Made by a program: the position numbers and the translations under genes
In this document: piece by piece, positions 12,945 to 63,581 of the stretch
Layout of the letters: the number at the start of each line of letters is the position of its first letter
Position numbering within the stretch: position 1 is the first letter of the stretch
NCBI GenBank assembly: GCA_000004695.1
Contig: CM000153.2
Span: 5,120,001-5,184,000, forward strand
Direction of reading: 5' to 3'
Source of the DNA: Dictyostelium discoideum
Lineage: Eukaryota
DNA length: 64,000 nt
Notes under the pieces: generated by a model
Databases searched by the model: none
The model's input: only the letters and a program-made list of their open reading frames with translations
What the model was told of the DNA's origin: nothing

Positions 12945-14730
12945 TTAATTAATTTGAGTATTAACTAAACCACCAGCAACACCATCAACAAAATTATCCA
13001 AAAACTTTTTAGTGATTCTAGTATAATTTGTAACTTGTTCTTTCCATTTTATAAATGCTTGATAATCTTCCAATTTATCTAAACTTTGTTCATATTGAGT
13101 TGATAAAAGATTGGTATGTTTTTCGAGATCTTCTTGAAGGTATTCGAAAAGATTACGTTCTTGAGATTTTTTATCCAAATAGTAACCATAGACATAGGAG
13201 TATTGTAATACACGACGATTCTTTAATAACTGTTCAGTTGCCTCCATAAGGAATTTGGTATCAGCCGATCTAACATCGAATTTACTTAAGATTTGTTGTT
13301 CCTTAAGATGTGCGTTCCTTCTTTGTTCATCGGCGATCTTCATAGCGTTTCTATGTGATTCATATCTGTGGTAGTAAAACATATATGCCTCTAATTCAGT
13401 TTTAGCATCATGTGCTTTATCATCATCTTCTTTGGCTTTTGATTTATCATATTTGTTACAATTGTAATAACCACCAGTGGTTGAACCATGTTCAGTCCAT
13501 GGACCACGACATAGCCAACAAAATTCAAATCCACAACCACCTGCATTCTTTCTACATGTCATATGCATACAACCACCTTAATTTTATAATAATAAAAATA
13601 AAAAAATAATGAAAATTAGTATAAATAAATTTTTTTAAAAAAAAAAAAAAAAAAAAAAGTTATAATTTACTTACCATTCTTTTCAATTGGACTACGACAT
13701 TCTGGACATTTTTTAGTATTTGCTAACATCCAAGTTACATTTTCAGATTCATCAGAAGCTTTTTGAAGCCATTTGTCAACTTGACTACATGGACATGGCA
13801 TATGATCACCAATTTCATAATCATTACAATTGAAACAATATTGGAAACCACATTTACAATTAACTGCTTCTTTACGTTCTTTACGATCGCATCTAATAGA
13901 ATATATACAACCAGGAGCTGGACACCATTTAACTTGTGGATTATCATCTACATATGATTTCAAAATAAAGTTATTGAAACGTTCAAACACTTCTGGTGAT
14001 ACAATTTGTTTGAATGCATCTTGATGTACGATTACTTTACATTTTGGTGCTGGACATGGTGTATAAATACATTCAGGTCCTTCACTAACTTTTATCTCTA
14101 AATAGTTTTTATAACATGGTAAACAATAACGATGATTACAAATTAATGCAAATGTTTGTGTTGGTGGGTAATCTTCTAAACAAATTAAACATGAAACATT
14201 TCCACTCTTTTCTACAATTGTTGCATTTAATTTCATAACATTTGGTACACCTGCATCTATACATAATTTCTCTGGATTTTCCATATATCTTTCAATTAAT
14301 TTTTCTTTATTCCATCTATAAAAATAAAACAATAATAATAAAAATAAAAAAAAAATAAAAAAAAAAAAAAAAAAAAAAGGTTAGAATTTATAAATTATTT
14401 AAAAAAAAAAAACTTTTAAAAATAAAAAATTAAAACTTACTTCATATGTCTTAATAAAGTTGAAACAGCAGCTTCAGATGGAATACTTAAAACATCTTTA
14501 ACTTCTTTTATAATTTTATGAGATTCTGAGAAAAGATCATCTTTATTTAAAACTTCAAAACTCTTTTGTCTTGTTAATTTACCTAGAGATCTTTGTGGTT
14601 GGTTTTCATCAAAATCAAACTCTTGGGTTGCTGCATCATCATATTCTGTATCATCTAATGATTCGTTTCCTGACTCTTCGGCTGAATCATCATCTACATC
14701 ATAATCTTCATACATTTCATCGTCTGTCAT
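12945..14730 (-). CDS. Ariadne-type RBR (RING1-IBR-RING2) E3 ubiquitin-protein ligase; exons 14730-14441, 14315-13675, 13576-12945
   Basis: Three minus-strand ORF fragments join through two introns (GTAAGT donors on the minus strand at 14440 and 13674; AG acceptors before 14315 and 13576). Phases are consistent (2, 1, 0). The protein has an acidic N-terminus, then WNKEKLIERY, then C3HC4 RING1 (CLICLEDY...CNHRYCLPC), then IBR (CPAPGC...CKCGFQYCFNC), then RING2 ([34 protein letters not shown]), then a C-terminal Ariadne domain. It may be the D. discoideum rbrA family. Confidence 0.85.
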
Positions 14731-14989
14731 TGCGGTTGAATTATTTAGTTTTTGTTTTTTATTTTTACGTTCTTGTGATGAATTTGGTTGTTGTTGTTGT
14801 TCAGAATCACTAAAATTGCTTAGTTGTTTGTGTGAATCTGTGTTGTTATTACTAATATTTTCTGCTTTTACTGTTGCTGCAGTTTTGGTTGTTGTTGTTG
14901 TTGTTATTCTTTTTTAATTTTTTTTTACCAAACCAACAATTATTATGTGTGATTAGGTATATTATATATTTTGTTAAAATATATATATG

Positions 14990-15055
14990 GGTGTATAAGT
15001 GTGCGTTTGTGTTGTGTTGTGTGTGTATGTATGTATGTATGTGTGTGAGTAAATA
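14990..15055. repeat. (GT)n/(ATGT)n microsatellite
   Basis: The sequence reads tgtgcgtttgtgttgtgttgtgtgtgtatgtatgtatgtatgtgtgtgag. Confidence 0.8.
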
Positions 15056-15284
15056 TATATAAATAATAATTATAAAAATAAAAAAAGAAAAAAAAAGTTG
15101 ATGTGTGATATAATATTAAATATATTTTATAAAATATGGTGTTTTTTTTTTTTTTTTATTATTATTATTTTATTTTTTATTTATTTTTTTTTTTTTTTTT
15201 TTATTTTTTTACTTTTTTTTATTTATTTTTATTTATTTATTTATTTTTTTATGTACAAAAAGAAATAATTGTGGTGTGTTTTAA

Positions 15285-15315
<31 letters not shown>

Positions 15316-15439
15316 TAAAAAAAAAAAAAATTAATTTTTTGTTTTTAATTAAAAAAAAAATGAAAATAAAAAAAAATAAAAAAAAATAAAATTAAAAAAA
15401 AAAATAAAATAAAAAATAAAATAAATATAAAAAAAAAAA

Positions 15440-15575
15440 AAAAAAAAAACATTTATAAAACATAGTTTTCTCACGAATATGAAGTTACTAAAAAAAAATT
15501 AGAATAACGCCAAATTTTTAGTAAATTTATATTCGTGAGAAAACTTTGTTTTATAAATTTTTTTTTTTTTTTTTT
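15440..15575. repeat. Large nested inverted repeat (hairpin/cruciform-capable) in a divergent intergenic region
   Basis: The left arm CATTTATAAAACATAGTTTTCTCACGAATAT (15449-15480) matches the reverse complement of the right arm ATATTCGTGAGAAAACTTTGTTTTATAAATTT (15528-15562) with one mismatch. The loop itself contains an inner palindrome (ttactaaaaa ... tttttagtaa). The whole structure is flanked by poly-A on the left and poly-T on the right. Confidence 0.7.
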
Positions 15576-16273
15576 TTTTTTATTTTTTCAGTTATTTGTT
15601 TTTAATTAAGGAAAAAAAATAAAAAAAATTGGAATTGTCCTAATTTTTTTTTTTTTTTTTTTTTATTTTTTTTAATATTTCCATACGGATAAAATTTTAG
15701 AATAAATATCCTCTTTCTAGAATGTTTGATCTTTTACATTTTATTTATTAAATAATATTACAACCCATTTAATATAAAAAATAAATAAAAAAACAAAAAA
15801 AAAAAAATAATTTTAATTAAATATTTACAATTAAATAAATACCAATCATATTTTAATAAACAAATAATAATATTTTTTTTCCAAAAAAAAAAAAAAATAA
15901 AAAAATAAAAATTTATAATATCTAAATGGATAATATTGTATTATAAATAAAAAAAAAATTTATAATATCGAAAAATCGTTATCAGTAAAAAAAAAAAATA
16001 AATAAATAAAATACATAAAAAAATACTTGTTTACAAAAAAATGATTTTTTTTTATTTTTTTTTTATTTTATTTTTTAATTTCTTTTTTATTTTTTTTTTA
16101 TTTTATTTTTTAATTTTTTTTTTTAATTAATTTTTATAAAAAATTTTATATTTTTTTTTTCTTTTTCTTTTTTTTTTTTTTTTTTTGACACTTTGGATTC
16201 ACACCACTTTAAAAAAAAAAAAAACTAAAAAACTAAAAAAAAAACTAAAATAAAAAAAACAAAAAAATACACA

Positions 16274-46319: not shown

Positions 46320-46419
46320 NNNNNNNNNNNNNNNNNNNNNNNNNNNNNNNNNNNNNNNNNNNNNNNNNNNNNNNNNNNNNNNNNNNNNNNNNNNNNNNNN
46401 NNNNNNNNNNNNNNNNNNN
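46320..46419. other. Assembly gap (100 N)
   Basis: A run of exactly 100 N. Sequence 45856-46319 before the gap matches 46420-46883 after it at a constant offset of 564. Confidence 0.95.
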
Positions 46420-48271: not shown

Positions 48272-48354
48272 AGCAAGGGTAGGAAAGTCTGGTTAAATCC
48301 GTGTGACTTAAGATCTCATCCATTCGGTTCGCGAGTTCGAATCTCGCCTCTTGC
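48272..48354 (+). tRNA. tRNA-Leu (anticodon UAA), class II with a long variable arm, 83 nt, no encoded CCA
   Basis: Manual cloverleaf fold. The 7-bp acceptor stem GCAAGGG/CTCTTGC includes one G-U pair, with discriminator A. U8 and A9 are present. The D-stem is 3 bp, with GG in the D-loop. The anticodon loop is CTTAAGA (anticodon TAA, U33 present), on a 5-bp stem with one U-U mismatch. The variable stem-loop is CC-ATTC-GG. The T-arm is GCGAG-TTCGAAT-CTCGC. Confidence 0.8.
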
Positions 48355-48391
48355 AATGTTTTCTTAATTTCAATTATTCGATTATTGGTTC

Positions 48392-61313: not shown

Positions 61314-63581
61314 GCAAGTATTTCTTTCATACAACCATTTAAATTAGGTCCAAAAAAAAGAGAACTCGAGCTTATCGGGGAACAAAAATTCCAGATATCT
61401 CCACTGGACTCACCAAAAGATAGGGTCTTAAAAGAGGAAGTTGAAACCTTACAAAAGAATCACACAAAAACTGAAACCCCATCAACTCAAACAATTCAAG
61501 TATCTGAACCAATTCAATCAAATCAACACCAGTATACTTCAACCAAACGACAAAAACTGGAACTAAAACAATTACCAGCTCGACCACAATCCTCAAAATA
61601 CCCCATACATTCACATCAAAAGTCAATTGATTCACAGATACAATTAAAACTACAAAGTCTACAACAAACAAAACAACAAATGCATACCCAACCATTACTA
61701 AAATATCAACAACCCCAAAAAGCTCAACCCCAAAAAGCTCAACCCCAAAAAGCTCAACCNNNNNNNNNNNNNNNNNNNNNNNNNNNNNNNNNNNNNNNNN
61801 NNNNNNNNNNNNNNNNNNNNNNNNNNNNNNNNNNNNNNNNNNNNNNNNNNNNNNNNNNNACAAGCACAACAATTCGTGAAATCTCAGCAACAACCACAAT
61901 ACACACAACAATACACCTATGGTTATCAAAATCCATATGGAGATCTTCCATATCAACAGCCATTCCCTTATCATACACAATATCAATATCAACCCCAAAT
62001 TCATTACCAAGCCTATCAACCACACTCATATCAATACTATCAATACCCTCCACAATATCCAGCCTATCACTACCCACAACCATATGGTGATCAATATCAA
62101 CAATCCCAACAGTTGCAAGCTCAACAATCACAAACTCAAGCGCAACTTCCAAACACCCAGGACCAAACCCAAAGAGATATTTTATCACTTCCTCAACCAA
62201 TAAAACAGGAACCATATTCAAATAACCAAGTACCATCCCCTCATCCAGAAGCAAATTCACCTACTGTTCTTGACGGAGCTCAAAATATTATTAACCAAGA
62301 ACTTCAAAATTCAAATAATAATAATAATAATAATAATAATAGTGAAAATGATGCAATTATATTAATAAAAACGCCATCACCCATAGTTGATATATCACCA
62401 CCACTATCAGCACCTATAGGTCTAAAAAGAAAATCTTTTGTACCTAAATCCTCAAAAAAAAATATCCAAATTTACAAAACTTATTCAAAAGATTTATTGG
62501 GTCCAATTCAACAAATTGAATTAATTAAGGGATTTAATGAAGAACTACAACAACAACAAAATAATGAAGAAGAAATTTATAATTCATCATTTTGTTTTTT
62601 AAATTGTTCAACAAAGAGGTTCTTTACTGTTAATAGTCAAGGTGTTTATAGTGAAGCTTGTGAATTAAAAATTGATAGTTTCGATATTAGTGCTATTGAA
62701 GGTTTGAAATTGGCCTTGTTAAGAGATCATTCCATACTATTGCTAGGTAGAGGATCTAAAACTCTTGTTTCTTTTCAACTTCCAGGTTTTGTCTCACCAA
62801 GGTACTTAAAGACTGCTCAAGATAATACTAGAGCCATTGAAACAATTCATTCTTGTTCATCAAAATCATTGCTTTATACATCGTTTAGAGATGGTACTTT
62901 AACATTAGAAAAATTTTCTAATCAAGACAGTAACTTTGGATTAGGTTTTGTAAGTAAAGTTAAAGAAAATGAAATAATAACCTCTTTAACCTCAACGAAA
63001 ACAAATATAATATGCTTTTCACCAAGATATATCTCTGTTAGAACTTTGGAAACTTTACAAAAATTAACTGAGTATGTATCTGAAAAACCATTTAAAATGG
63101 TTAGATCTTGCATAGATAAGTATTTAATTGTAGATGATCAAAATATTATGACTGTTTATAATGGATTGAATTGTACTCAAATTTTCACCAGAGTCTTAAA
63201 TGAGGATATTAATGAAATTTCTTTTCTTGTAAGTTTTTAATTTATTTTCTTTAAAATATTGTTTTTTTTAAAATTTTAAAATCAAATTAATATTTTTTTA
63301 AAAATAATTAATAATTTATAATTTATAAAAATTAATTAATAATTAATAATTAATAATTAATAATAAATAATAATTATAAAAAAAAATAGGGAAGCGATAA
63401 TATTGTTTTGTGTCAAAAGGGATTATTTAAGATTTTTTCCTGTGATCAAACATTTATAGAGCAAACATCACATCAACTTGAGGAAAATGAATATGTCACT
63501 GCAATTTCATCACCAGATAATACTACCCTCTTGATTGCAACAAACATTCAATCAAAGTGTTATCACTGTAAATATAAATAA
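59444..63581 (+). CDS. LisH/CTLH-domain protein with long poly-N and poly-Q tracts and a Q/Y/P-rich region; exons 59444-59760, 59851-60324, 60437-63228 (contains an assembly gap), 63390-63581
   Basis: The LisH motif (LNELKEYVKVALDIFYQLGYNNSFK) is split by a phase-2 intron (GTATGT at 59761, AG at 59849-59850). A CTLH-like helical region follows (FYFDLKLFKKYIEVGNFEESEKYL...LYLHHFIEQLESKNLSEAEKIL). A second phase-2 intron has GTATGT at 60325 and a poly-T tract ending CACTAG at 60436. The last intron has GTAAGT at 63229 and AG at 63388-63389. The reading frame across the N-run 61760-61859 cannot be determined. Confidence 0.55.
61760..61859. other. Assembly gap (100 N) inside a coding repeat
   Basis: The N run is preceded by three tandem copies of ccccaaaaagctcaa (encoding PQKAQ). 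Confidence 0.95.

Follow-up and report, generated by a model that had tools for sequence, protein, structure and literature searches.

A near-perfect palindrome between rbrA and a G-patch gene of Dictyostelium discoideum, a probable lineage-specific inverted duplication of intergenic DNA

Introduction

Human palindromic AT-rich repeats (PATRRs) are several hundred bp long; they form cruciforms and are unstable. Young plant MIRNA genes, in the Allen et al. 2004 model, are reportedly born by inverted duplication, which gives them long near-perfect foldbacks. Further systems with which an AT-rich palindrome can be compared are MITEs and foldback elements, the products of template switching (inverted duplications, quasipalindrome mutations and polymerase-theta-type templated insertions) and the miRNA loci of Dictyostelium. 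For the latter, published structural criteria (a minimum free energy, MFE, below −0.2 kcal/mol/nt, and pairing over at least 60% of the duplex) are used with read criteria (10 or more reads for 5p and for 3p alike, precise 5′ ends and a 3′ overhang of 2 nt), dependence on DrnB being a further criterion for a Dictyostelium miRNA gene (Liao 2018, PMC6161686).

Here we describe a palindrome from D. discoideum AX4, found in a 64-kb stretch of chromosome 4 (the window; all positions are given within it unless marked chr4), in the intergenic region between the divergently transcribed genes rbrA and a G-patch gene. The palindrome does not count as a demonstrated case of a miRNA, MITE or PATRR. We consider it probable that it arose by lineage-specific inverted duplication of DNA already resident there; most likely it serves no dedicated function and drifts.

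Results

Anatomy and folding of the palindrome

An initial annotation had described, in this region, a nested palindrome of ~130 bp in which a 47-bp spacer contained a second, inner palindrome. The sequence quoted there is present at 15440-15575 as given. In a register-based scan the palindrome turned out to be larger, 152 bp in total and near-perfect (15429-15580, chr4:5,135,429-5,135,580), and not nested: the outer arms, the supposed inner part and the poly-A and poly-T extensions all lie in one register, with 62 of 66 arm positions complementary, and the true spacer between the inverted adjacent copies is 20 nt (Table 1). The four non-complementary pairs are 15450/15559 (C.T), 15463/15546 (T.T), 15481/15528 (G.T; a G:U wobble in plus-strand RNA) and 15484/15525 (G.A). 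Together with its A9-10, the left arm reads as the reverse complement of T9-10 plus the arm, and the 16-nt core of the loop (the filler) is TTAGAATAACGCCAAA. The A-rich tract to the left and the T-rich tract to the right form a low-complexity inverted repeat that flanks the palindrome, which is the sole one with sequence complexity in the 64-kb window.

G+C makes up 22% of the arm's complex part, versus 13% of the intergenic region; it is thus elevated, as had been remarked earlier, though hardly 'strikingly' so. The element had also been placed about 700 bp from both genes; its centre in fact lies 775 bp away from the ATG of rbrA and 770 bp from that of the G-patch gene.

Folded as plus-strand RNA, the palindrome has an energy of −60.1 kcal/mol (z −14.4), as minus-strand RNA −56.6 kcal/mol (z −12.3) and as DNA −51.7 kcal/mol (z −13.3); its fold energy was matched by none of 200 shuffles. 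As far as structural potential goes, both RNA and DNA folds bear out the early suggestion of a cruciform site or hairpin-RNA template, while no evidence of function was found. The palindrome is not an assembly artefact, since an independent D. discoideum assembly, GCA_054883475.1 (99.76% identity to the window), carries the same palindrome as AX4, homopolymer lengths aside.

Table 1. Positions of the palindrome, its surroundings and other features of the window
Feature	Position	Strand	Description
rbrA, ATG	14730	-	Ariadne/RBR ligase
In-frame codons upstream of rbrA ATG	14731-14919	-	63 codons, KRITTTTTTKTAATVKAENISNNNTDSHKQLSNFSDSEQQQQPNSSQERKNKKQKLNNSTA
Antisense transcript CUFF_3890_1	14270-15277	+	chr4:5134270-5135277
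Microsatellite	14990-15048		(TG)n/(TATG)n, in rbrA leader/promoter
TATA-like element (putative promoter element)	15122-15137	.	palindromic, ATATTTTATAAAATAT; read by eye
T-run downstream of TATA-like element, towards rbrA	15097-15068	-
T-run downstream of TATA-like element, towards palindrome	15143-15250	+
Conserved stretch, apparent plus-strand start region	15122-15290	+	ATATTTTATAAAATAT, 108-nt T-rich tract, then TATGTACAAAAAGAAATAATTG..GTGTGTTTT
A-rich tract left of palindrome	15283-15428	.	orthologous in all species; anchor AATGAAAATAAAAA
Left arm	15429-15494	.	A21, then 45-nt complex part CATTTATAAAACATAGTTTTCTCACGAATATGAAGTTACTAAAAA; inverted (new) copy
Loop (spacer)	15495-15514	.	AAAATTAGAATAACGCCAAA, 20 nt
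Right arm	15515-15580	.	TTTTTAGTAAATTTATATTCGTGAGAAAACTTTGTTTTATAAATT, then T21; collinear and orthologous with outgroup single copy
T-rich right flank and conserved anchor	15581-15596	.	TTTTTTCAGTTATT
Conserved intergenic block	15709-15730		CTCTTTCTAGAATGTTTGAT
Low-complexity hairpin	16170-16227		T19...A14, across presumed G-patch start site
Conserved intergenic block	16187-16207		GACACTTTGGATTCACACCAC
G-patch gene, ATG	16274	+	low-complexity gene
Run of exactly 100 N	46320-46419		probably reference assembly gap
tRNA gene	48273-48355	+	Rfam RF00005, 49 bits
Run of exactly 100 N	61760-61859		probably reference assembly gap

Genes and transcription around the locus

The gene DDB_G0286961 was placed at chr4:5132945-5134730 (−) in supplementary file 21 of Rosengarten et al. 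2017 (PMC5295588), and these coordinates agree exactly with the ORFs of the window, which places the window at chr4:5,120,001-5,184,000 of AX4; the FZ-domain gene next to it corresponds to AX4 DDB_G0286953. The same study reported the antisense transcript CUFF_3890_1, with 164 antisense versus 20732 sense reads (Rosengarten et al. 2017, PMC5295588). This transcript covers exon 1, the leader and the promoter of rbrA, and its 3′ limit, ~150 nt short of the palindrome, coincides with the beginning of the A-rich tract. Read counts in that work were limited to uniquely mapped reads (Rosengarten et al. 2017, PMC5295588); reads from the A-tract and the palindrome would presumably have been lost.

The TATA-like element, of which TTTTATAAAA is kept in D. 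citrinum and D. firmibasis, is followed by T-runs on both strands and may serve as a promoter element. The stretch that begins with it is conserved across all species and looks like a plus-strand start region divergent from rbrA. By eye, the G-patch gene has a TATA, a T-run and a GACAC start of its own near 16187, which we infer to be its promoter. Both intergenic blocks of Table 1 are conserved in D. citrinum and D. firmibasis, and the second, situated after the T-run, is probably the G-patch transcription start region. The hairpin that lies across this presumed start site gave weak, non-significant matches to several miRNA covariance models (E ≥ 1), a composition artefact. The microsatellite upstream of rbrA is present in D. 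discoideum and largely missing in D. citrinum and D. firmibasis.

Some observations concern the gene model of rbrA. The 63 in-frame codons upstream of its ATG show amino-acid conservation in D. discoideum ACTFIW, D. citrinum and D. firmibasis, with indels in multiples of three and a 38-glutamine run in D. firmibasis, and by eye the minus strand has no AUG from ~15060 to 14730. The length of rbrA is 586-608 aa in all new assemblies versus roughly 520 aa in the AX4 model (as estimated from window ORFs). The first exons of the new-assembly models span the palindrome; they are non-orthologous and probably spurious. A non-AUG codon or an unrecognised upstream exon are candidates for the true start.

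State of the locus in other Dictyostelium assemblies

The syntenic rbrA/G-patch intergenic region was compared in eight assemblies besides AX4 (exact-protein look-ups and two homology searches), in all of which the gene order Ank protein (+), rbrA (−), G-patch gene (+) is intact. The orthologous segment was bracketed by the anchors AATGAAAATAAAAA and TTTCAGTT, the latter being found in 9 of the 9 assemblies examined.

In the AX4 segment (z about −15) the arms differ at 4 of 45 positions. The palindrome is also present in D. discoideum ACTFIW (GCA_054859355.1), with arm differences at only 2 of 45 positions (MFE −71.7, z −16.9); its right arm reads ...AAAACTATGTTTTATAAATG, so that two sites mismatched in AX4 pair perfectly, and its poly-T extension is interrupted. 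In D. cf. discoideum ACTFIY both arms and the loop TTAGAATAACGTCAAA persist in a degenerate form. Its inner arms have diverged (left CTCATGTGGAGTTACT, right AGTATAAATTTATATTAATAAG), giving 10 mismatches and 6 gap columns from arm to arm (MFE −42, z −5.8), and its loop core, shared by AX4 and ACTFIW, carries a C>T change. The segment of D. cf. discoideum ACTFIZ is CATTTTTTCTCACGAATTTGAAGTTACT-A7-TAACAATTAACTATGTCTAAATG-T39 (z about −2); only the inner left arm, in inverted orientation, and the outer right arm are retained. This segment equals that of AX4 minus the inner right arm and exactly the 12 nt TATAAAACATAG (left part); the ACTFIZ palindrome has collapsed by deletions.

A different state was observed in D. 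citrinum (two strains) and D. firmibasis. Here a single arm, in right-arm orientation, directly follows the orthologous A-rich tract (T10-AGTAACTTCAAATAATTCGTAAGAAAACTG... in D. citrinum, T10-AAAGTAAAGTTCAAATTCGTAAT... in D. firmibasis; z about 0 in each), and the loop core is missing from both species. Orthology of the single arm rests on the anchors, the orientation and local alignments; a whole-intergenic MAFFT alignment was rejected, as it misplaced the outgroup single arm against the left arm and loop. A likeness of the loop to TTAGCAAAACC of D. firmibasis was judged unconvincing.

Outside the group formed by D. discoideum, D. citrinum and D. firmibasis the rbrA/G-patch synteny is lost, which makes D. 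purpureum unusable for comparison; on its scaffold GL870997.1 the FZ-domain orthologue has other neighbours (COG7, RMC1, MIF4G). Logan contigs of D. discoideum runs, about 1.1-1.4 kb long, stop short of the palindrome. No orthologue from a dictyostelid came up when proteins were searched with the Ariadne exon, and no protein record was found for the rbrA exon-1 ORF or the G-patch ORF.

AX4 and ACTFIW are both labelled D. discoideum, and they differ by ~4% substitutions and many indels in 14731-16273; their third-position divergence in the FZ gene, 7.5%, is about equal to that between AX4 and 'D. cf. discoideum' ACTFIY. Species labels within the D. discoideum complex look inconsistent.

Polarity, age and divergence of the arms

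The phylogeny was taken from protein distances and from the third-codon-position divergence of the adjacent FZ gene. The latter, measured from AX4, is 0.075 for ACTFIW, 0.088 for ACTFIY, 0.135 for ACTFIZ, 0.185 for D. citrinum and 0.266 for D. firmibasis, and it is 0.226 between D. citrinum and D. firmibasis. Since D. firmibasis falls outside the group of D. citrinum and the D. discoideum complex, the single forward arm is ancestral. Independently of the tree, the arms are closer to each other (2-4 differences in 45 positions) than to the D. citrinum orthologue (5 mismatches and 5 gap columns), hence the duplication took place after that split; the D. firmibasis orthologue is at 13 mismatches and 5 gap columns from the arm. 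Judged from these comparisons, the palindrome is young, having arisen within the D. discoideum complex after the D. citrinum split. It had been anticipated that absence from related strains would indicate a recent insertion; the recent origin holds, while foreign DNA was not inserted, the duplicated DNA being local.

The D. citrinum arm aligns with the reverse complement of the left arm at a score of 62-66 and with the right arm at 46. At the two complex-wide sites of arm difference D. citrinum agrees with the left-arm complement (AGTAACTTC); thus it is the right, original arm that has mutated, and the left arm still carries the ancestral bases. All four arm differences in AX4 are right-arm changes, two of them common to ACTFIW and ACTFIY and two specific to AX4.

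From third-codon-position divergence, 4.0-6.1 arm differences are expected under neutrality, with P(≤2) = 0.06-0.24 and P(≤4) = 0.28-0.64. The observed arm divergence fits a neutral clock. With RNAalifold, applied to AX4, ACTFIW and ACTFIY, the covariation term was +2.5, i.e. a penalty, on only three informative sequences, and no convincing compensatory change was seen among them; one doubtful double change lies within an A/T run, and the post-duplication substitutions are otherwise one-sided or pair-breaking. Among one-sided changes compatible with G:U pairing there is a non-significant excess of 4 to 1 for the plus strand. Over a similar time ACTFIY has accumulated ~10 substitutions and 3 indels, with the stem remaining near-perfect in two D. 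discoideum lineages, a hint that D. discoideum proper has preserved it better. This contrast in rate is significant only if each nucleotide change is independent; the changes are clustered, and when they are counted as events it is marginal. Selection or arm-to-arm gene conversion could also explain the difference in rate.

Discussion

Probable origin by local inverted duplication

The outgroups carry the half-site in place, which argues for an inverted duplication and against a transposon insertion. We propose that, in an ancestor of the D. discoideum complex, a resident segment of ~45-66 bp, consisting of a T-run, AGTAACTTCATATTCGTGAGAAAACTATGTTTTATAAATG and a T-run, was copied in reverse immediately upstream of itself, with a 16-nt filler placed between the two copies. 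A template switch during replication or repair, i.e. fold-back or 'snap-back' synthesis, would most likely have done this, primed by microhomology of the left A-run and the right T-run, which are mutual reverse complements. A single step of this kind would produce, in order, an A-run, the reversed arm, an A-run, the filler, a T-run, the forward arm and a T-run. The junctions do lie in reverse-complementary A-run and T-run, homopolymers that make the exact breakpoints undefinable. For the 16-nt filler, no template was found at ≤3 mismatches in the window or in the orthologous loci. A 9-mer common to the loop core and 15697-15705 is a chance-level match and was dropped as a template.

The 152-bp AT-rich product can extrude as a DNA cruciform, or form a 66-bp hairpin if transcribed. 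Since then it has stayed almost whole in D. discoideum proper; substitutions and indels have eroded it in one sister lineage, and deletions have made it collapse in another. Because of the erosion and collapse in sister lineages, and with no convincing compensatory changes, a neutral structural mutation is the simplest reading.

Alternative explanations

That a MITE or foldback transposon was inserted into the intergenic region, as the initial annotation had offered, is extremely improbable. The length of 152 bp, the A+T richness and the terminal inverted symmetry are foldback-MITE-like, and the trinucleotide TAT stands on both sides (15426-15428 and 15581-15583); flanks of this kind are, though, expected by chance in 87% A+T DNA, and there is no target-site duplication, the A and T runs being mutually inverted rather than direct repeats. 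The outgroups have one arm in situ and no clean empty site. A second copy of the arm or loop was found neither in the 64-kb window (arm 17-mer, loop, ≤3 mismatches) nor in about 150 kb of orthologous Dictyostelium loci, and the palindrome pattern had no match in metagenome contigs; 85 matches to the 17-mer in metagenomes are due to chance (27% flank identity, none palindromic). The element thug-S, tried as a model of a small palindromic MITE, was dropped, being a DNA transposon with an intron (Meier 2016). We also see only a slim chance for a role as a cis-regulatory palindrome or cruciform. One version, itself quite unlikely, would be that, through the duplication, a conserved element distal to the promoters (AGTAAC..TTCGTGAGAAAAC) came to stand in both orientations halfway between the divergent promoters of rbrA and the G-patch gene; the alternative, for which we would give little more than an outside chance, is that the cruciform itself is a protein-binding or insulating structure. 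Consistent with such roles, amid DNA of 84-87% A+T the single arm can be recognised as an orthologue in D. citrinum and D. firmibasis, other conserved blocks surround the palindrome, and its position between the two ATGs is almost exactly central. Conservation of the arm with D. citrinum (~77%) is, however, no better than the average of alignable intergenic sequence (74%); the CG-containing core is destroyed in both ACTFIY arms, one arm is deleted in ACTFIZ, and no known Dictyostelium factor motif was identified in the element.

It is possible, if on the whole unlikely, that the palindrome is a newborn hairpin-RNA gene, a proto-miRNA or endogenous siRNA locus. Such a hairpin might conceivably be reached by plus-strand extension of an antisense or promoter-associated transcript, or from the minus strand by an extended rbrA pre-mRNA, and DrnB/RbdB or DrnA might then process it to RNAs of 21 nt. 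Its folding energy of −60.1 kcal/mol over 156 nt, or −0.39 kcal/mol/nt, is well beyond the published −0.2 kcal/mol/nt, and with 62 of 66 positions paired the duplex is also above the published fraction. The known dictyostelid miRNAs are mostly single-locus, intergenic, species-specific and young. The plus-strand transcript CUFF_3890_1 reaches 15277, 150 nt upstream of the palindrome, and ~200 nt ahead of the hairpin there is a conserved T-rich tract with TATGTACAAAAAG after it, similar to the T-run-plus-G start sites that lie 116-281 nt upstream of mir-5p; in addition, rbrA models run across the palindrome region in all new annotations, and two D. discoideum lineages have a near-perfect stem. 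Against these points, the hairpin is degenerate or lost in ACTFIY and ACTFIZ, the three palindrome-bearing lineages provide no convincing compensatory changes, and a 66-bp near-perfect stem is unlike the known ddi-miRNA precursors, which are imperfect. Near-perfect complementary sites are absent elsewhere in the 64 kb, where the complex 21-mers of the hairpin have no target or copy at ≤2 mismatches. Neither the arm strings nor the chr4 5.135-Mb coordinates were found in the supplement of Liao 2018 (PMC6161686), and the arm strings were not found in the supplements of Edelbroek 2024 (PMC11014262); the palindrome is not among the miRNA lists of these two studies. Full-text searches for the arm strings, in DNA and RNA spelling, gave one unrelated yeast primer match only. 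Rfam has nothing at the palindrome at the gathering threshold, and the best permissive match was mir-276 (16 bits versus a threshold of 62, E = 1.2). Absence from small-RNA and lncRNA catalogues is weak evidence, since pipelines that require unique mapping are likely blind to the palindrome and its homopolymers.

A bolder form of the hairpin-RNA explanation, which we regard as doubtful, is that of a gene caught at birth, with D. discoideum proper dicing the 66-bp hairpin into small RNAs. The setting of this birth, no less speculative, would be an inverted duplication within an already transcribed divergent-promoter region; similarly, ACTFIY and ACTFIZ might then, with the same reservation, stand for the alternative fate, decay. 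If true, this would be a dated, stepwise de novo origin of a small-RNA gene in Amoebozoa, a group in which almost no miRNA is conserved between species.

Significance and comparison with known systems

Regarded as an inverted duplication of resident DNA, which is the reading we prefer, the palindrome belongs to an ordinary class of structural mutations, but its record is unusually good: the single ancestral copy and the near-perfect, eroded and collapsed states are seen at one syntenic site in six lineages and nine assemblies. The locus illustrates the way in which long hairpins can be seeded, in an 87% A+T genome, by A and T runs that are reverse complements, and it is a concrete candidate for testing the origin of young, species-specific dictyostelid miRNA loci. 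With respect to read mapping, pipelines restricted to unique mapping will probably overlook a near-perfect palindrome that has homopolymers on both sides.

With MITEs and foldback elements the palindrome shares size, A+T richness and hairpin potential; it differs in being single-copy in the sequence searched, in having no target-site duplication and in leaving a half-site in relatives. Like PATRRs, it is AT-rich and near-perfect with a short spacer, and the lineage-specific internal deletions of ACTFIZ are consistent with palindrome instability; unlike them, it is only 152 bp long and gives no evidence of breakage or rearrangement, synteny being intact in the eight other assemblies. The resemblance to young plant MIRNA genes lies in a lineage-specific, long, near-perfect hairpin made by inverted duplication and decaying or absent in relatives, with the difference that the duplicated DNA is intergenic here and not a fragment of a target gene. 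D. discoideum miRNA loci such as ddi-mir-1176 and -1177 (PMC6161686, PMC11014262) are, similarly, intergenic, single-copy and species-restricted, with a stable hairpin and a T-rich tract upstream; the stem of the palindrome is much longer and more perfect, and it is not among the loci reported in Liao 2018 and Edelbroek 2024.

The comparison with template-switch systems has its own differences. No template was found for the 16-nt filler in the window or the orthologous loci, and the copied tract (~45-66 nt) is longer than is typical of quasipalindrome corrections; the proposed mechanism is read here from the sequence. The likeness extends to the junctions, situated in reverse-complementary homopolymer runs, and to the presence of a short filler. 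As in template-switch inverted duplications, quasipalindrome mutations and polymerase-theta-type templated insertions, what we see is an inverted copy of the adjacent sequence at a single locus.
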